A stretch of DNA of 50,132 nt, the filler included, from Bipalium vagum (taxonomy: Eukaryota), in NCBI GenBank assembly GCA_037834085.1. It is 2 parts of 2 records of this genome, joined end to end, with 100 filler letters (N's around TTAATTAATTAA, not from the genome) between each part and the next. Parts side by side here need not be neighbours in the genome. Positions count along the whole stretch, not along the records: positions 29,620 to 50,132 come from JBBMKC010251342.1; 1 more part is not named here. One strand, given 5' to 3'. The notes under the pieces are model-generated. The model was given only the letters and a program-made list of their open reading frames with translations, searched no databases and was not told where the DNA came from. Below, one piece after another: positions 9,052 through 50,132 of the stretch. The translations under genes were made by a program, and so were the position numbers. Numbering within the stretch: position 1 is the first letter of the stretch; every line of letters begins with the position of its first letter.

Positions 9052-9234
9052 GCAACGTTGATAATGAAGGTCAATGCAATAGACATAGACGAAGCCGGAA
9101 AAAATCAGGTCATGTACTCCATTGAAAGCGGAGATCCCAATAATTTATTTCAAATTGATGCAAATGTTGGGGGTATAAGTTTTGCAAAGAAGCCAAAGCT
9201 CTCTGAAGCCAGGTCGTATTTTTTGACAATAAAA
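9052..9234 (+). CDS. Protocadherin-like gene, internal exon (membrane-proximal cadherin repeat, part 1)
   Basis: Acceptor ctctcAG (9050-51), donor GT at 9235, phase 0/0. Encodes ATLIMKVNAIDIDEAGKNQVMYSIESGDPNNLFQIDANVGGISF...YFLTIK, with cadherin AxDxD, YSI..G and F.Id..G.I motifs. Confidence 0.9.
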
Positions 9235-9290
9235 GTAAAACTTACAGATAGAATTTGATATTTTCATTTTCAGATATTTTATTTTTCTAG

Positions 9291-9785
9291 GTAACAGATA
9301 ATGATTATCCGATCCGATCGGCTCAAATTACGATCCATCTTAAGCTAGATGAATCCAGAATGCAGTTTACAAATGAATATATCAATTCTAAAGAGAACGG
9401 ACAGTCTGAGGACAATGCTTGGATGGACAGTTCGAGCAACAATAAAATGGCTTTAAATCGAAACATAATGCTAATCATTTGCTTAATTATTATATCAGCT
9501 GCGTTGGCTGGAGTTCTCTTAATGCTTATCATGTGTTTGAAAAGACGACCTCTGCCAGCTTCCAGGAAAAGTGATAATTCAGGAACTATTTCCAGAAAAT
9601 CTATAGTTACAAATCCAAATGGTTGCTCCATTTATTTTGACTCTAACAAGAAACCATTATTCGGAACCATAAAAGCAAACTCAAATGATGGGAGTAATAT
9701 GTCCCTCAATTACAGAATGATCAATGCGGACAAATATCAGGATTTGATAGGGGAAAATAACCAAGGTTCCTATTCCGGATTAGAG
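9291..9785 (+). CDS. Protocadherin-like gene, exon with end of cadherin repeat, transmembrane helix and start of cytoplasmic tail
   Basis: Follows a 56-nt intron (9235-9290, tttctAG). Reads VTDNDYPIRSAQITIHL (cadherin A.D.G.P motif), then TM IMLIICLIIISAALAGVLLMLIMCL-KRR. Donor GAG|GTAAGT at 9786, phase 0. Confidence 0.9.
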
Positions 9786-10009
9786 GTAAGTCTTTTTGGT
9801 TTTCTTTAATTCGAAATTATTTATAATTTTATTTATAATTATATTTATAATTATATTTATAATTATAATTTATAATTAAACATCCAAATCTAAAAAAAAA
9901 TAAAATAATAAAAGAAATCACACGTTTCTTTAAATTTCGTGCATTAAATATTTATTTATATAATGAATGAAATCTTAAAATTCTTTAATTCTTATCATAT
10001 TAATAAATC

Positions 10010-17830: not shown

Positions 17831-18891
17831 ACTAAATACTTTCAGAAGATGAAGTCTTTAAACCATTTTATCTAACAAATCGATCAGAGATTATTTGTGG
17901 AAGTTAAACAATTACAATTTTACTTTTTATTACTTTATAATTTTAATATAATTTTTAAATTTTTTTTTAAAAATATAAGAAAATTAAACCAGTAAAAGTG
18001 TTGTTAAGCTGATATGGTACCGTGAATAATTGGAAATTAATTAATTCAATATTTTCTTAGATTTATGTAAATTATTATTTATTTATCTTTTCTAACAATG
18101 ATATATATAAAAAAATTTAATTTATTATCGAAGTTTATATTAAAATGATTAATTTAATTAAAAAAGTAAGGTAAAATTATATTGCGATACTTATTAAATA
18201 AATTACACACTTATTATATTATTAATTTTATAATTTTATTATTATTAAATATAAAATAAAAAAAATAAAACTATATTAATAAATTGAACTTATTAACTTA
18301 TTAAAAGAATGTTAATTCGATAATATAAAAATAATCAAAATATTATTGATAATATTTTTCTTAAACATAAACATCATCAAATATTAAAACATGTTTAGTA
18401 AAATAAATGTCATCAATTTACTAATTATTTTTATTATTAAAAATTCTGAACTTATTAGGGCACAGTCATTTTAAACTAACATAGATAAAATTACACAATT
18501 GGAAGCCTAAATTAAAAATTAAAATAACACATGACTTTTTATTAATTGTAAAGTATGTAAATAAAATGTTTTAATTTCACATTAAAAATGCATTATTTTT
18601 GTTATTCTATTAGTTAAAATTTATCAAATATTTTATAAAACAAAATGATACAAAACATTCCAAAATTTTTAAAAATTTAAATTATTCTTATTGTTATAAG
18701 TGGAAAATATCATTTTATTAAAACAAAATAATTGAAAAAGGAAAATCGTAAAGATTCAATATTTGAAAGAAAGTCATTATTATAACAACGAAAGAAATTT
18801 CGTATAATTGATAATTATCTCTTAAATAAAAAAATTATTTAAAAGTTTTTTAATAAAAATGAAACTAATTTATTTTTTTCTTAAATTCCAG

Positions 18892-19208
18892 TTTATCAAA
18901 AGATTAGCGCTAATATCGAATTGCCAACAGCTAAAGGGAGAAAAACAATAATTGATGATCAAATTTTATCAAGCCCTGATGATGCCCCAAGCTTTTTGTC
19001 AACTTATGGTTTCGCCGAACATCAGCTGGAATCCCAGCCAAGGGCAATCAACGTCAGATATCAAACCCTGAACAGTAATGGAAAGTCAACCATATTGAAT
19101 TCTTTACCTCTCGACAATGCTGATAATATTTACTCGAATTCCAACATGGCCACCGTGGACAATTGTTCTAGTCCAAAAAAATCATTTATTGCTTCATCTT
19201 TTGTGTAA
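18892..19208 (+). CDS. Protocadherin-like gene, terminal exon ending in class I PDZ-binding motif (SSFV*)
   Basis: Acceptor ttccAG (18890-91), phase 1; (I)YQKISANIELPTAKGRK...FIASSFV, stop 19206-19208; AATAAA at 19287-19292. Confidence 0.8.
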
Positions 19209-38030: not shown

Positions 38031-38429
38031 ACTTTCGGCATTAAACAAAAATTCGAATTTTAATATTATTTTTATTAATAATAAAATAAATTAGAAATAT
38101 ATAATAAAAGAACCAATTTCTTACTTTGATACTAACTAAAATTTAGCAAAAACGAAATGTGCATGAGCAATTTTAGCGATAAATCGCTAAACAGGAATAC
38201 ATGAAATCAATGACGTTCAACATAAATTCACGCATACAAACAAAATATCTTTTTTTGAAAATTGATATAGGAAATTCTTGGTAAATTGAATGGGAAATAA
38301 TGATATTTTTATTTATTGTTTTCAGTAGTTATTATGGTTATCGATTTCAGTTTTGTGTTATAAGAAACTGACTTGTTTTGTTTGCGAAGGGCATTTACGA
38401 AGACATTTGTTGGACAGCATTTGGATCTT

Positions 38430-40900: not shown

Positions 40901-43144
40901 ATAAAAGGGCTACAATAAAACTTTATTCTTTCAATCACAAATACAAAAATAATCACACAGTAGCACCAAGTGAAATGTCTCAAATAATCAGAATCAACAG
41001 TACTGAAAACAAAACAATCAAATCGAATAATCAAAATATTTAAATCAGTAAAATTTCAATACTTAACAAAATAATTAATACTTAATAAGATCAATGTTAC
41101 TTATTAAAAAGGTAGAATAAAACAATTCAATATAGATCTCATCGATCCAGTAGATGATGGATCCAATAGTAGTTTACAGAACCCAATAGTAGTAAGATAT
41201 GACGTTAAAAAAGCGTTGGAGACGATCAGAGTAGACCGCATTTGAATCAGAGGCTAGTGGTGACACTACCCCTAGTCAAGACGGATAGACTCATAGATCC
41301 TAGAATGGATGGAGCAGTGTCGTTGAATATGTTGGTCCAGTATTATGCCAACTAGAAGATGGTAGATAAAAGAGGGTTCTTTGCACTACAGCGAGACATA
41401 TCATTTATGCTGAAAGTGTGGATAGTAGTCAATGATTTAAAGAAAGGATTAGTAGGTATAGGAAAAGAAGTTCAGAAACAGAAGAACTAACCACCTGAGC
41501 AAGTGAACAGTAAACTTATGAAACTAAGGTTGGGACCTGAGGAGAAGGCAACCACAAGCAAGGTAGTTTCCGAACCAATAATAGAGAGAATACAGGAAGA
41601 AGTAAAAATCCAAGAAGAATTGGTCCAATGAAATGGATGTAGAAAAAGAAGAATTCGATGATGAAGAGTCGAAGAGATTAGCAGGTCAGTTTAAGAAGTA
41701 TGGAGAAATATACAAGTCTCCGCTTCTCAATTTGGACTACAACGATAATGAGTTCGAACCAATGATGCAGAGAGAGGAACACGAGAGAAGACGGTAGAAC
41801 AAACATAAGAAATAAGAGGAGATGAAGGCCGTGGCAACTGATATTCCAAAAAAGATTAGCCTTCAAAGTCCAGCCAACAATCAGACAAAAAGAAGAAAAG
41901 TTAGAACTCAAACTCCAACGATGACGAGGATGTAATAAAATTTTCAGAAAGCGTAGATCTGAATGGAGACTCGTCAGATGAAGAGAATGTAGTAGAAGAA
42001 ACAAAGAAGGTGATTTTGACTATATCTCATAAATCGTTTTAATTACTTATCCGTTTGATATCAAGAAAATTTACTATTATATATATTTTGACATTGATTA
42101 GTGGGTTGTGGTTTTTAGAAGGATTATTTGGTAGATTTGAATTCAAGTGGGATTCAATTAGGGTGCGGATAAATTTTCATTGTGGGGGTTTTGATTCAAA
42201 CTGTACTTTAATTTGTGCAGCTACAACAGTAAGACGAACACAACATCGAATAGTAAGGAGCTATTTATGTATAATTGTTAATGTATAATAGTAACACAAT
42301 ACAATAACCAGACTATTCCATGAATCAGTGGAAGTACTAGGAAATGATTTCGACAAAGATTATTAATTAATAATAGTGAAGAAGTAATCATCACTTATAA
42401 ATAGTAAGTTTCAATCGTAATCTTCAACGAAGGAGACATTAAAGATAATATATTTTTAATTTTTTTTGAACTAGAATTCGTTTTATTAATGAAAATGAAG
42501 ATCGAACTTATCTATTTCCTTTGATTAATGTATTAATGTTCAGTTTCCTTTATAATGTCAAACCTTTGAAAATTTTTCTAAGGATCTCATAGTTGAATAG
42601 ACATGATTTTAAGTATTGTTTATTCATATTGATTTGTTTGTTAAAAACATTTGATAAAATTTTATTTTATACTTATTGATTACAATTTTTAAAATCAATT
42701 TATTTTTAAAATTATAATTTTTATGCTGAATTGTCTCAAAACTGAGTCGTCATTAAATTATTCATTCTCACAAAAATGATAATTGCTTCATATTTTTTTG
42801 TTCTTTATTCTTTAGGGCATGATCTCCGTTGCAATACCTTTTCTTTTCTGATCTGAGTTTTCTGTAATCTCCAGCATTGGTTAATAAAGAATAATTACAA
42901 GTTTTAATTTTCTAATTTTCCCGGATATGTCTAAAAATAGAATTTATTTATTGTAATTGATGAGAGACAGCACACTTTCATTAATAAATTCAACTAATTA
43001 AACTGGTCAAAAAGTAGGTCATAAATAGTGCATTTTAGTCACCATCTTTTTCCATTGTCATTTTTGATTGTTTATATTGAATATATAATCAACAGTGTTT
43101 TGTAAATTTAATTTTTAACATTTTGAAATTGTTCACTGTTGAAA

Positions 43145-43223
43145 ATGTGTGATGAAAAAAAATGGAAGATTCAAGAAAATATTTTAACATCTAACCAAAA
43201 CAACATTATAAGTTGCTTTGAAA
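43145..43223 (+). CDS. Candidate first exon of a putative micro-exon gene
   Basis: aaaATG with an in-frame stop upstream (43124); MCDEKKWKIQENILTSNQNNIISCFE; donor A|GTAAGT at 43224, phase 1. Confidence 0.35.
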
Positions 43224-43389
43224 GTAAGTTATTGATTTCTTCTAATAAAACAAATTATCAGCAATGTTTTAAGAATATAGGACATTCGTCAGTCGTAATC
43301 AAAATTTTCGAGAACAGTTTTTCAATATTTTGAAGAATGAAATCAGTATCAAAATTCGTAATTAATCACTTAAATAAAAATATTTTTAG

Positions 43390-43443
43390 TGAAATCTACT
43401 GATTATTTTGAAAAAATTTCTCTGGTTAATGATATTCAAGAAG
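43390..43443 (+). CDS. Candidate 54-nt symmetric exon
   Basis: tttttAG|...AAG|GTAACT; open in phase 1 (KSTDYFEKISLVNDIQE). Confidence 0.35.
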
Positions 43444-44105
43444 GTAACTTATTAAGATTTTTTTTTTGTTACCTATAACTAAAATATTTTACTACTTAAT
43501 TTAATTTACATGAAAGCCTGATTATCTGACTTAGAAAGAACTGGTGGGTTTTTCCGATGGACTTTCTGAAATGATTTAAATTCAGCATCTATTATTTTTC
43601 TTTTGTTTCCACATTAAGGTGTTTTAAGACGATTCATATTTATTGTAAATAGGAATTTCCAAGCATGGCTTGAAAATTTTAGAAAATAAAAAGTATAGTA
43701 TGTATTTCCCCCAAGCTATCAAATTTTCCACTATAACGTTTTTTAGGGAATCATCTGGGGAATCTAAATATCAGACTATTTTAAAAATTAATTTATTTAA
43801 TAAAAAGTTATGTCAAATACAAAATTATAAAAAATTTTCAAAAAATTAAAGTTTCTAAGGAAACCTAATAAAATGAATTATTTAAACATGAATTATTTAA
43901 ACAAACCTTTAATATTTTTTACCTTAACAAACCTTAATACAACCTAATTTTCAATACGTTAAATTAATATTTCAAATAAATTTTAATTAAATAAAATACT
44001 TAATATATTAATGTACTTAATACTTAAATATAATACTTAAATACATCATCTTTACACAGAACATCCAAACAAATGTATTTAAGCAGTAAATTATAAGACA
44101 TTTTA

Positions 44106-45529
44106 CATTCAAACCTGTATATTTTGTCACCTTTATAATTTGCCACCCTCTCTAATTTATAACGAGAAGATTATGAAAGAAAAGGCTTTATATATAGCTA
44201 AGACATGTGGTTTAACTACCTTCAAGGCGTCAAAGCTTCAAATCTATGTATGGAATTAATTTTAAGACTTTATCAGGCGAGGCATCGAACAAATCTTTTA
44301 AAGATTATGAAGACTATTACAATTTGATCCTTAAAAAGATTAATATGTATGATCCTGATTCCATATTTAATTGTGACGAAAGTGCTCTTTTTTTTAAACT
44401 ATCTCCTTCCAAAAGTCTTATGTCGAAAACTAGAAAAGGAATCAAGACATTCAAGAATAGAGTAACAGTATTGTTATGCACAAACATGACAGGATCTATC
44501 AAAATGAAGCCATTAGTTATCGGAAAATTCAAAATTCCAAGGTCATTAAAACACTAACCAGTCTGAAATCTGTGATTATTATTTTAATAAATCAACATGG
44601 TGAAAACAATTATTTTTAATGAATGGTTGATAAAATTTGATGGCAGACAGAGAAATAAAAATCAAAAAATACTTCTTATATTAAACAATTGACCGGCTCA
44701 TCGTGTCTGTGTTCAAACTAATTTTATTGAAATACATTTTCTACCAATAAATTCGATTACTATTACTCAGCCTCCTGATGGCGGTATTATCAGGTTTTAA
44801 AACCAAATATTTTCATTTTTTGGTTTCTAATGCTTTTTATAAAATAGATAAAGGCATATATGCAGAACTTGCATTCAAAGAGTTTACAATCAAAGATGCT
44901 GTTCTTTATTATTTGGTCTTGGAATACAGTGAAATCAGAAACAATTTCAAATTGTTGGAAACATGCAGGATATTATTTGGATAGTCCACTTCAAGAAGAA
45001 AATTTCTCAATTCAGGTAGATTTTTGAAAATACAAGAAGCTATTAATATATTGAATATTCTTGATGCAGTGGGACCTAATCAATTTATTGATGAATTCAT
45101 TAAGGAAAATGAAATTTTATTAGCTTTAACTGACACAAATAATAAAGATTTTTTAGAGGTTGATGATGAAATTCTTGAAATTAAAGATCAAAGTTAAGAA
45201 GATACTGAGCAGCAAGTATATACAATTAACTTTGAACTTGAACATTTTAATAATTTGAAAATTTCATAACTAATGATGAAACAGCTAACATGAGTGCTTT
45301 AAACGCTCTTTCAGAATTCGAAATCTGGCTCCGAAAGAAAATATTAAAAATACTAAATGTAAAAAAAGAATCAATGAAAATAAAATTTTGTTTAGTATTT
45401 TTTTAAAAATTTCCACGATTTATTTTTAATGATTTCGATTTTTTTATTTACCTCTATAATTGGCCACCCTTTATAAATTGCCAATCTTTGAAATTTGTGT
45501 CCCATAGTTTAATAATAGAGGGTTGACTG
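44106..45529 (+). mobile_element. Tigger/pogo element, internally deleted, with TIRs
   Basis: FKAS, LSGEA, IFNCDESALFFKLSP, NRVTVLLCTNMTGSIKMKPLVIGK..PRSLK, FLP.NS..TQP.D; ends TA|CATTCAAACC... and ...GAGGGTTGACTG|TA; subterminal TATAATT(T/G)GCCACCCT repeats. Confidence 0.9.
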
Positions 45530-46959
45530 TATAAAAAATTATTATTCATATCTGCTCCACTAAAGTTTCAAATAGCGATATTTGAATTCTTATTTCCAAT
45601 ATATTCTGAAATATATAAATAAAGATGTAGTGGATGAGTACCATATCTTCGTTGATGTTAATTTTTTAGGATTTCATTTTAATTTTACAAAAAAGTTTTA
45701 TTCAAAATAATATCCTAATTTCATTTGCTTTTGCAAATCATTTTTGGATTATATATAAGTATGAAGGATTTCATTATTATTATTAATCTTTGTACTTTTA
45801 ATTATAATTATATTATTATAGACCTTTAGTGGTCTTATAATTTGAAGGGTTGAAATGATGTGCCTTTGGCCAACCCAGCACTTCTTAAAATAATTTTAAA
45901 ATCAAATTTGATGTAATTTTTAAAATATTTTTATCGTTTTAAAAATTTTTTTACAAAGAAAGTTTATTGTCCACATATACATTCATTATCTCTAAAATAT
46001 TTTAATTATGAAAAGATATTACATAACTCATTTTCCTAAATTCAAAAGTACAAATTCGATTTTTGATTGAGGCAACAAAAAATTTACTTGAACTTTAAAA
46101 TAACAAAAAAAATGCTAATCAAAGTTTAAAAAATCTTCATATCACTAAATATAAAATTATCAAGTATTTCTTGATTTTATTTTAATCTTGTAAGAAAATA
46201 TAACGATTTAGTTTATTTAAACAAAATTTGGTCGCTAGGTACAAACAGACTGCAATAGTTCCAAAGTAATAAGGGTTTTTTAAAAAATAAAAAATTTTAA
46301 TAAATAAATATATTTGTACCATAAAAATCTAAAAAATTAAATATATTAAAAATATATTCATATTTAAAACCACAATTCTCTAAGAATCTCTATGTTTCTA
46401 TATAACTTACTTTTATATAAATGTTTATTGACTTAAAATTTAGTTTTAATAAAAGGTACCCAAATAAATACAGTTAACATTTCTTTAACATACCTATATT
46501 CTTGAAATAAAAACCTAACAAGTTATTTCTCAGGTCTGTGCCATCAAAGTAACTGTTGGTACCAATGTGATAATGGTAACATTATTTTTTTTTAATATAA
46601 TTCACTTAATTTGATTAATGCGATTGGAAATCAGTTTTTTTATTAAAATTGTAATTCATTTTATTTTTGTTACTCTAAAATATAAAAAATTAAATAATAT
46701 TAATTATCAAATTTAATGAAATGAATTAAATAAAATAATTATTTCGTCCTCTTTAATTTATTTTTATTTTCATTTTTAATTTTATTTCTTTCACCATCTT
46801 AGTTTATGTTTTCGATAATAATACAAAATTTTTTATGTTTCCTAATTACACAATATAATGATTTTTGTTATTCAGTACCTCAGAACTCGAACAATACTGA
46901 TCTAGATGGTTATTTCTATTATTATTATAATTATTATATAAAATAAAGTTTTAAAATGA

Positions 46960-47432
46960 TCGCTGATGAGTATCCTGGGCTTTTAAAATTTTGGACCATT
47001 TGAATTTTTTAATGGAACACTTTTAAATCCAATTGCAAAATTTTCTGAACTGATGTTCTCAATATGCCTATCTGAGAAGAGCGACGACAAGTAGATCCTG
47101 AAGCACATTCTACTGTACATTGCACGGTTGCGTCATTATGCACAGTCCGACAAGGACCTCTTCCGGGATAATCTGTGACTGATCCAGTATTTTCAAAAAG
47201 AGTAATTAGGTTCCGAATTATGTTTGTGGTATTGGATTTTTTACATATATCCGAATCTTTGTGCTAAAATAGTAGACTTATCATTCAAATAGAATAACTG
47301 TATTAGTTTTACTCGACGTTGAATATCATTTCTTATACTCATTTAAATCTGCAAAGGATGTCTAATATTATCTAAAAAAAATTTAAAACATCATTATGAT
47401 TTAAATAGATCAGTCTTTTAATGGCCACCCCG
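46960..47432 (-). mobile_element. Tc1/mariner (rosa/DD41D-like) 5' remnant
   Basis: RVKLIQLFYLN, FENTGSVTD, RRSSQIGI..SVQKILQLDLK; terminus TA|CGGGGTGGCCA on the minus strand. Confidence 0.6.
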
Positions 47433-47479
47433 TATATCTTATCTCAATATTTTCATTTTACCACATCGTTTTCTATCTA

Positions 47480-47710
47480 TAATCATGAATACATCTTTTT
47501 CATACCTTTTTATGATGGACAATGCTGTAGTTTTATTACTTTAACGCCTGACTTGATCTCTTATTTCCTGTATATCAAAGCTAAACTGTGATTTGTCGCT
47601 AAAAAACACCTGCCAACTTTCATTAAACCAATGACGTCTTTCATTGCACCAAATTAACCGGTTAGAACGATTTAGTTCAGTCAATTGAATTTTGATATTT
47701 ATTTTATGAA
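47480..47710 (-). mobile_element. Tc1-like fragment
   Basis: NRSNRLIWCNERRHWFNESWQVFFSDKSQF...QVRR. Confidence 0.65.
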
Positions 47711-47804
47711 AGATAAGAATTGGGGAACAGATTAATACTTTACTTTATATTGAACTTTTATTTAAAAATGAAAATTACATTTAAAATATACTTAAAATTT
47801 TTAG

Positions 47805-47837
47805 ATGATATTTTTTTCGGTGAAAACCTTGTCCCTA
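47805..47837 (+). CDS. Candidate 33-nt symmetric micro-exon
   Basis: tttttAG|...|GTAAGT; open in phase 1 (DDIFFGENLVP). Confidence 0.35.
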
Positions 47838-48049
47838 GTAAGTTTAATTGATCAATTTATTATTTTTCTAGATATATTTTCTTCATTTTATTTGATCATA
47901 TTCATGTTATATCTTGAATTTTTATTTAAATGGACGAATTTTTAATTTACAATATAAAGTTATTTCTGATATTATAAACCATATAAAGATATTTGTTTAA
48001 TATATGATTAAGGTAAGTACATGACATCGAAAAAATATGACCTCGTATA

Positions 48050-48870
48050 ATAAAGAAGGCTCCAGAGATTGTAAATTCATTAGTCGTAATGATCGGAGGT
48101 AACTGTCAAATGACAATTAAGGAATCCGCAGCGAAAATAAAGAAAAATTTAATAAATTTGCCACAATACCATGAAAAATTGGTTAGATGGCGAACTGATA
48201 TCATTAAAATTAGTTCGTCCTACCGTTCAAAATATGAATATTCACGAAAATAAAGTCAAAAGATTTAAATATTTAAATAATCTCTTAAGAGCCAAATCTA
48301 ACGAAAGGACAATAATTTGGAGACTAATCAAATTTTAATATTTTGTAATCGAAAATAGGGCAGATCAAAATAGGATACCGATCAAGCCTAATTATTGTTT
48401 ATAGCAAACGATGTCTTCATTGTCTTCAACAAAAATTTACAATTTTCAATGTAAACGGGGCTCTTTTAAAGGAGATGATTGCAAATTATGGCTACGACAG
48501 TTAATCAATGAGTGCAACGAAGAAGGAATCAAGACTCAAACAATTGTGATTGACTTTATTTCAATGCACAGTCAATTAGAGACAATTATTGAGATGTTGA
48601 AATTATTCGTTTAGCTCCGTATTCGTACTTAATAAATCCTATTGAGTTAGAATGGAGTTTTTTCAAATTTGTCGTATAGAAAAACTTTTTGACGAAATGC
48701 CTCTTTTTAAGGCATCTAAATAATGATGGATACAACTAAATTTCTAACGAGAGGACAAGAAAGAATCACAAATGTTACCAAAAAAACCTTGACAACTAAA
48801 AAAATTTTTGGTTTTCAAACCATGTGGACATGTTTATTCTACCGTTATCCAAATGAAAGATCTATTTGAA
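48050..48870 (+). mobile_element. IS630/Tc1-superfamily transposase remnant
   Basis: ISLKLVRP..NMNIHENKVKRFKY, GSFKGDDCKLWL, IVIDFISMHS, RLAPYSYLINPIELEWSFFK. Confidence 0.75.
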
Positions 48871-48945
48871 GATCTCGAATACTCTTTGATATTACTGTTT
48901 CTCAATTGTATATATCAAATGTAACTCGTTCTATATTTTTTTCAG

Positions 48946-48963
48946 GATCCTCCACGAGAAAAG
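48946..48963 (+). CDS. Candidate 18-nt symmetric micro-exon
   Basis: ttctatatttttttcAG|GATCCTCCACGAGAAAAG|GTAAGT; consensus-perfect splice sites. Confidence 0.5.
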
Positions 48964-49269
48964 GTAAGTTGTATTTTCTAACAAACATTTAATGCAAAAG
49001 GTAGTATTTATTTATTTTGATATGTTAACAATTTTTGTTTGAGAATGTTCCAAATTATGAAAATTTTATAAATTACCTTAATTGGTTTCGTGCCTAAGTT
49101 TTTTAAAAATGTAATTAAAACTTAAGAATTTTCTCTTGTTTTTTGCTATAAGCTGCGGCCTATTAGAACAAATTTAATTCATTCGTATAAAAAATAATAA
49201 TATTAATATTTCCTTTTAAACGATAATTTATTAACAATCATCACACAATTTTATAAAATGCTCATTCTC

Positions 49270-49950
49270 TCATCAGCAAAAAATCTTCATCTACTAAACG
49301 AATATCTATATCAGGAGAATATTCAGAATCATTTGAAAAAATCTCACTCTTCATCATCGATGTGTATTGTTCTAAATCCACTTTTTACAATATGTATTGC
49401 AATGCTATTCCATACTTCCAATACACACTTGATTATCTTTCCATATGATAATCTTTTCATTACCCAAATATTGATGTAACCTTTTTAACAGGTAAGCAAT
49501 CCACATTTCCCTCAATTTCCTTAAATTATTAAGAAATTTAAAAGACTTATTAACTGGTTTGTCAGGTGGCTGTAATTAAGAAGTTAACCCTCCATGCACT
49601 TTTTGCAAGAACTGTTAAATAGGCTTTTGGTTAAATCAGTTATATGGCTCGGAGCTGTATGTAATATGAGAAAAGAGCTTTTTAATTTTAAAAAAATTGG
49701 TCTTCGATTACATATTTTGGAAATTAGTCTCATCTCAGCTGCTGACATTCAACCTTTATCATTTGCAGATATTTTCCATTTTGAAAGTTTCCTTTTGGAA
49801 TAACTTTTCCTTTAAAAGTTATTGGTAATGCAACAGTACAATTATATTTTTCATGATCTGTGGTAGTGATCTTAATTTAACGTTCAAATAGTAAATTTTC
49901 TGGGAAGGCCAAAGATAACTGAAAATTAATCTCTATTTCCTATGTGATTA
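49270..49950 (-). mobile_element. pogo-family DDE transposase remnant
   Basis: GGLTS.LQPPDKPVNKSFK...LREMWIAYL, then CVLEVWNSI...VKSGF. Confidence 0.65.
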
Positions 49951-50054
49951 GCGTCTAATCAAATTTTCTGTTCCTCAACATAATTTTTGAAATTATCTAC
50001 TAAATGTTGACTCACTGAGGTTATTGCACGACTTTGTTTTCATAAGTTTATCTA

Positions 50055-50132
50055 TAGTCAAACCCGCTTAATATCACATTGCTTTTTGAACACAATTCCA
50101 ATGATATAAACCGTTGTTGATATTAGACGGAG
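50055..50132 (+). mobile_element. Probable 5' TIR of a pogo/Tigger-type element running off the window
   Basis: TA|TAGTCAAACCCGCTTAAT resembles the CAGTC(A)AAC.C terminus seen at 45529. Confidence 0.35.

Follow-up and report, generated by a model that had tools for sequence, protein, structure and literature searches.

The window analysed here is a stretch of 50,132 nucleotides (nt) from the Bipalium vagum assembly GCA_037834085.1, made of two joined parts, of which the second (29620–50132) is the entire contig C251342 and carries a predicted gene of very short exons on the plus strand, between 43145 and 49166. Nine segments forming the main chain and one alternative last exon had been proposed in an earlier note; all ten lie where stated, have the lengths and AG/GT borders given for them and are open in phase 1. 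We read the chain as a single flatworm gene, present in one copy and specific to its lineage, with symmetric phase-1 exons whose lengths are divisible by three (3n), a prediction that we consider moderately probable; its transcription and splicing, the order and number of its exons and the identity of its last exon are what we infer from the genomic sequence.

The likely first coding exon (43145–43223, 79 nt) begins with ATG, ends in phase 1 and has an exon score of 9.6 and a donor of 8.3 bits, in the top 1.2% of background GT; it is single-copy, as is 42300–43690 as a whole in the assembly. Exon 2 as proposed (43274–43345, 72 nt) is the weakest link of the chain: the acceptor has 3.6 bits, the donor 0.6, the exon scores -5.3 bits, and the parser used below rejects it, preferring 43281–43316 (36 nt) or no exon. 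It is followed by a likely exon of 54 nt (43390–43443; acceptor 5.5, donor 8.0 bits), whose codon score is matched by 1.1% of matched open segments, and by a possible exon of 45 nt (43653–43697), the donor of which coincides with the edge of a dispersed repeat (43698–44103); both are open in phase 1 only. Three likely exons come next, of 42 nt (46534–46575; acceptor 7.5, donors 5.3–5.6 bits; open in phases 0 and 1), 33 nt (46876–46908; acceptor 7.1, donor 5.7; open in phase 1 only) and 33 nt (47805–47837; acceptor 5.7, donor 6.5; open in phases 0 and 1); the first of them has alternative donors that give versions of 15 or 21 nt, again divisible by three. The 18-nt micro-exon at 48946–48963, open in all three phases, has the strongest sites (acceptor 9.7 bits, top 0.1%; donor 10.8 bits, top 0.2%). 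The possible last coding exon (49153–49166) keeps the borders and open frame claimed for it, with a weak acceptor of 2.8 bits. Distal exons are GC islands, with GC of 0.40 against flanks of 0.17–0.22 at 46534, 0.39 against 0.16 at 46876, 0.33 against 0.09/0.14 at 47805 and 0.57 against 0.19/0.12 at 49153. Among segments of 3–130 nt outside the repeats, no further ones below 36 nt have good sites, except for the two shortened versions (15 and 21 nt) of the 46534 exon and a few that are weak or closed.

The introns of the model measure 50, 44, 209, 2836, 300, 896, 1108 and 189 nt. Phase 1 is the sole frame open across all chain exons; all 36 pairwise joins keep the frame, and none of them creates a stop, because the nucleotide left over behind the last complete codon of each exon is always A or G. 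Upstream, a strong acceptor lies before 42816 and a strong donor (7.5 bits) after 43013, and 42816–43013 is a possible untranslated 5' exon of the predicted gene, followed by an 82-nt intron to 43095 with an acceptor of 2.6 bits before 43096. A minus-strand ATG exon near 42877 was dropped, its putative intron being purine-rich by eye.

Splice-site expectations for this genome were obtained independently of the locus, by aligning a kinase profile over 46 genomic loci with a spliced aligner limited to GT/AG introns and keeping the 79 introns with well-aligned exons at both sides. The modal class of these introns is 40–63 nt (49/79), so that the first two introns of the model are indeed of the mini-intron size ascribed to them; phases 0, 1 and 2 occur 39, 11 and 29 times, AAG acceptors are present in 7/79, and splice sites carry little information. 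Introns of 50 and 44 nt and AAG acceptors are therefore normal here, and chance sites are common too. At loose site thresholds, chains of equal length are common. Internal exons of phase 1-1 are rare among the kinases (1/40).

A repeat-masked parser with genome-trained splice and codon models returned, unaided, seven of the eight exons of the earlier note, differing at exon 2 only. The best symmetric 8-exon chain scores -14.4 bits and the chain as first proposed -17.2; local block shuffles have a mean of -48.6 (SD 7.4) and a maximum of -20.0, and 0/1500 reach -14.4 (4.6 SD), while with the best exon removed the chain score is reached by 1/1500. Among real windows of 8.5–10 kb with at least as much AT-rich sequence (40 of 48), none reaches the chain score. 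The top five symmetric segments sum to 72.3 bits, which is reached by one of 92 partly overlapping real windows, and the five phase-1 segments ranked highest automatically begin at five of the acceptors originally proposed. No segment as strong as the 18-nt one occurs in 80 control windows, and ranks 2–5 are matched in 3/80. At the locus, all six good open segments outside repeats have lengths divisible by three, against 74/233 in controls, with thresholds set after the data had been seen and control windows that partly overlap; one of the six, 43586–43618, has no open phase-1 frame and is likely to be background. A codon model derived from long frames, which was a second attempt after a Markov model, gives p=0.018 for the eight exons and p=0.025 for exons 1–4, driven by exons 1, 3 and 4. 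Because equally long chains are uncommon under genome-trained scores, a real gene with symmetric phase-1 exons has become the more plausible interpretation.

A cluster on contig C4183 (L116:351–958, plus strand), with four short symmetric segments of 39, 18, 48 and 18 nt that are open in phase 2 and have good sites, tied the score of the predicted gene and may be another short-exon gene. Of the two highest-scoring controls, one, on the minus strand of contig C65432 (L113), holds a real-looking multi-exon gene, whose peptide is reminiscent of the Bax-inhibitor/Lifeguard family.

A number of results weigh against a single all-phase-1 gene. Some of them bear on how the segments are arranged: the exons at 46534, 47805 and 48946 also contain no stop in phase 0, which for 46534 and 48946 is the frame with the higher codon score, and the parser freed from the symmetry rule reaches a slightly better -11.1 against -14.4, by including a weak segment near 45631 that shifts the reading to phase 0. 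Since the contig also ends 1 kb past the last segment, some segments could be real exons of another arrangement, with the distal ones read in phase 0, included in a different or longer gene that continues past the contig end, or forming part of a non-coding transcript. We give this a small but real chance of being right; against it, the exon at 46876 has good sites and is open in phase 1 only, and the phase switch requires a weak segment that lies in a stretch of raised contig depth.

Other results bear on whether the segments are exons at all. Under the Markov model trained on kinases none of the segments has a significant coding score, codon use of exons 5–8 alone has p=0.21, and that of exon 2 resembles non-coding DNA. 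The acceptor of the last exon is not superior to 46% of background AGs, three exons taken as single GC islands have p of only 0.06–0.11 (n=36), and GC of exons 1–4 is just 24–28%, lower than in every kinase coding sequence (at least 30%). When thresholds are relaxed until exon 2 qualifies, a setting made after the data had been seen, 14 phase-1 segments are available on the strand of the locus and 25 on the minus strand, and 20/22 other windows offer as many; the opposite-strand null suggested earlier thus fails to set the locus apart under loose thresholds, and the shuffles suggested with it set it apart under trained scores. Real windows left unmasked, with transposon frames and real genes kept, give an equally good 8-exon symmetric chain in 32/53 cases, with ordinary-gene priors the chain has an absolute score below zero, and the p-values are too kind because the region was picked by eye out of 50 kb. 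The low information of splice sites, the many segments available at loose thresholds, the missing Markov signal, the unmasked windows and the lack of a homologue would fit a chance assembly of weak splice-like sites, selected by eye in AT-rich DNA. Such an origin is nevertheless unlikely, in that shuffles and AT-rich real windows fall short of the chain score even without the best exon, multiples of three are in excess and the 18-nt segment is unmatched.

Homologue searches add to the points against the gene: the pieces, searched one by one as single contiguous frames of 23–61 residues, gave no homologue, in searches that are weak for queries of this kind. Nothing was found among 4 candidates at E 10, and a search of 1.84 billion representatives gave five matches, all to repetitive or short low-scoring stretches and none continuing along the chain. 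The Atlas search gave no usable match, the PDB search no match, and Pfam no match for exons 1 and 2, searched singly. No paralogue was found in the assembly by DNA, peptide or pattern, in searches that were short or crowded by repeats, which likewise counts against the gene; frame-degenerate patterns for the 18-nt exon retrieved only the exon itself and one GC-rich contig of 249 bases without intron-like context. An Rfam search of 41900–50132 gave no match.

Two candidate domain families were rejected, and a KxDL-like resemblance is a further conjecture. For FCH/F-BAR, PF00611 is absent at the locus among 13 matches, and a profile built on 10 of this genome's own FCH pieces scores 0.5 bits there, with about 200 of 500 shuffles higher. 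For PAH, PF02671 is absent at the locus among 11 matches, and a profile of 21 Sin3 PAH domains scores 0.3 bits, rank 236 among the 903 matches listed.

The absence of a signal peptide, reported earlier, is borne out by hydropathy only: the maximum over 9 residues is 0.14 in the first 30 residues, with no hydrophobic N-terminal stretch. Seven ATG-to-phase-1-donor candidates for an upstream signal exon were found on the contig up to 43250, none of them convincing; one at 38300, with 12 hydrophobic residues and beside a retroelement frame, is a possible signal exon.

Repeats and transposon remnants occupy 43698–44103, about 44100–45530, 46959–47453 and 47955–48939. The claim that all segments avoid transposons is right for the nine of the main chain, which lie outside mapped repeats, and wrong for the alternative last exon 43747–43784, which was discarded as it falls wholly within the dispersed repeat 43698–44103, with 46 non-self matches in the assembly. 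The element at 44104–45530 on the plus strand is a decayed DDE_1 (pogo/Tigger-type) transposon remnant (PF03184, E 3.4e-7 at 44216–44554), with raised contig depth and a right end placed by eye. The high-copy repeat at 46959–47453 (37/39 non-self matches) has a weak DUF4817 match (PF16087, E 0.03, below cut-off) and is putatively of Tc1/mariner type. The low-copy repeat remnant at 47955–48939 has two other copies (76–78% alike), and its homology ends 6 nt before the 48946 exon, for which the repeat carries the likely branch site as well as some of the pyrimidine tract. The repeat ends at 43698 and 48939 each lie within 6 nt of a proposed splice site. A formerly real short-exon gene, now decaying, clipped by transposon insertions and deletions and no longer making its protein, would account for these repeat ends, one at the exon 4 donor and one 6 nt short of the exon 8 acceptor, and for the weakness of exon 2 and of the last exon, but is very unlikely, as the frames are all open, the sites of 48946 are near-consensus despite neighbouring repeats that must be old because they are 76–82% alike with their other copies, and erosion halting at exon borders would fit selection.

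Contig C251342 is assigned to the flatworm, an attribution suggested by its depth and shared repeats. Contigs of sequencing run X1 match the window without differences and contain no splice junctions, and the single-copy parts show no allele differences; X1 is probably the source data. The contig could not be extended past 50132 because its end lies in a very high-copy repeat (50035–50132), where summed contig depth rises to about 19,000 against 25 and many contigs end, and further exons may lie beyond it. A Sin3 domain from the assembly has 10/11 of its matches in flukes, at 64–67% identity. For two COX1 copies a correct reading requires AAA=Asn and ATA=Ile (table 9), a third is better translated by the invertebrate table 5, with conserved positions taken as an assumption, and broken COX1 copies are present too. 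The table-9 readings and the Sin3 matches mark the main organism as a flatworm. Since two distinct table-9 sequences and one table-5-like sequence (contigs C253947, C246471 and C253320) occur in one assembly, the sample looks mixed and probably contains more than one animal. FCH-domain genes are present as four diverged pairs, which may be duplications or may come from a second flatworm in the sample; Sin3 was found at one locus only.

In the first part of the window, protocadherin-like exons lie at 9053–9786 and 18885–19208 (Cadherin PF00028, E 1e-7), with a 56-nt intron at 9235–9290, and a further open reading frame (107 residues), which lies some 9 kb downstream, is, by eye, a possible last exon of the same gene. 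No relative of the membrane and cytoplasmic part was found in the library searched, so that relatives of the host appear thinly represented in it.

Micro-exon genes (MEGs) are commonly accounted for by immune evasion in parasitic flatworms. They have been described in flukes and tapeworms (PMC7653826), and the schistosome definition is used here as worded in papers that cite the original description. In the accounts available, schistosome MEGs share with the predicted gene a flatworm host, a run of short 3n exons, no known domain, transposons nearby, and short introns towards both ends with long ones between them (bioRxiv 10.1101/2023.06.21.545858; PMC4350168; PMC3435950; PMC10526429). They differ in having a signal peptide, which one account gives to all schistosome MEG products (PMC4350168), and a coding region mostly of micro-exons under 36 nt, 10–20 in number, whereas the predicted gene has seven internal exons and no signal peptide was found; only 3/7 of its internal exons are below 36 nt, and none is 15 nt by the preferred donors. 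Schistosome MEGs also form multi-copy families, have MEG sequence motifs and vary their isoforms by exon skipping, and no paralogue of the predicted gene was found. The symmetry of internal exons (3n, same phase) holds for the predicted model and is above chance, with three exons also open in phase 0. By the schistosome description the gene is not a MEG, as it lacks a signal peptide and its micro-exons are too few and too large. The operational rule for tapeworms, as summarized in its source, asks for exons of less than 70 nt and 3n, at least seven exons, at least half of them micro-exons, and a run of at least four (PMC7653826); the predicted model would fit, with nine exons and six consecutive micro-exons (54, 45, 42, 33, 33 and 18 nt), although tapeworm exons come from RNA-supported annotation and the count here, being predicted, would drop below seven if three weak exons were wrong. 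The gene is thus MEG-like in layout only, and the tapeworm rule would include it. Of the suggestion of a MEG-like architecture in another lineage, the symmetric phase-1 gene is the part now favoured; the host is itself a flatworm, and the features that define schistosome MEGs are missing.

Other short-exon systems share some features with the predicted gene. Schistosome VAL-6 has a C-terminal micro-exon region in a protein thought to be intracellular and without a signal peptide, so that a micro-exon tail of this kind already exists in flatworms; as described, VAL-6 also has an SCP/TAPS domain, 34 exons in the region and demonstrated alternative splicing, none of which is seen in the predicted gene (PMC3435950). 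In Schmidtea mediterranea, 262 microexons of up to 27 nt have been reported, and the 18-nt segment falls in their size class, with strong sites and a preserved frame; in that report they are cassettes identified from RNA, whereas here nearly a whole predicted gene consists of short symmetric exons (PMC4978528). The bicycle genes of aphids also have many small internal exons starting at codon position 2 (a phase-1 layout) and little similarity to anything, but are described as a large family of putative effectors with about 17 exons; the likeness of a single flatworm locus, lacking a signal peptide, is one of analogy only (PMC9168663). A literature search that covered article listings and the papers cited here retrieved no report of MEGs in free-living flatworms.

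If the predicted gene is real, its short phase-1 exons would be spliced into a small, non-secreted protein of about 105–129 residues. A 79-nt ATG exon, perhaps after a 5' untranslated intron, would be followed by exons shrinking from 72 to 18 nt; the first four, with their mini-introns, would encode about 83 N-terminal residues rich in Lys, Ile, Asn and Glu and possibly helical (helical periodicity of residues 1–83, p=0.06 only), and the distal exons of 18–42 nt a polar tail rich in Asn, Asp and Ser, in pieces of 6–14 residues. The protein would then be intracellular, with a tail assembled from cassette exons. These frame-preserving cassettes would be mostly included and sometimes skipped, as in the regulated microexons of planarians, and their skipping could tune short binding motifs. 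That inclusion is the default is a guess; skipping, given a real gene, may have a chance of about one in three, and the 36 stop-free joins permit it without demonstrating it. A stronger proposal, of a non-secreted micro-exon gene outside flukes and tapeworms whose combinatorial cassette skipping gives a ladder of intracellular isoforms in a free-living lineage, is doubtful.

The interest of the finding, at present a single predicted orphan gene, is modest, since flukes, tapeworms and aphids are known to have comparable layouts. Curation of MEGs across flatworm lineages has been called a high priority (PMC7653826). A verified micro-exon gene without a signal peptide would, if the host is free-living, provide an outgroup for asking whether the layout preceded parasitism, and combinatorial skipping in such a non-secreted gene, if true, would suggest a MEG layout that predates secretion and immune evasion and is independent of them.

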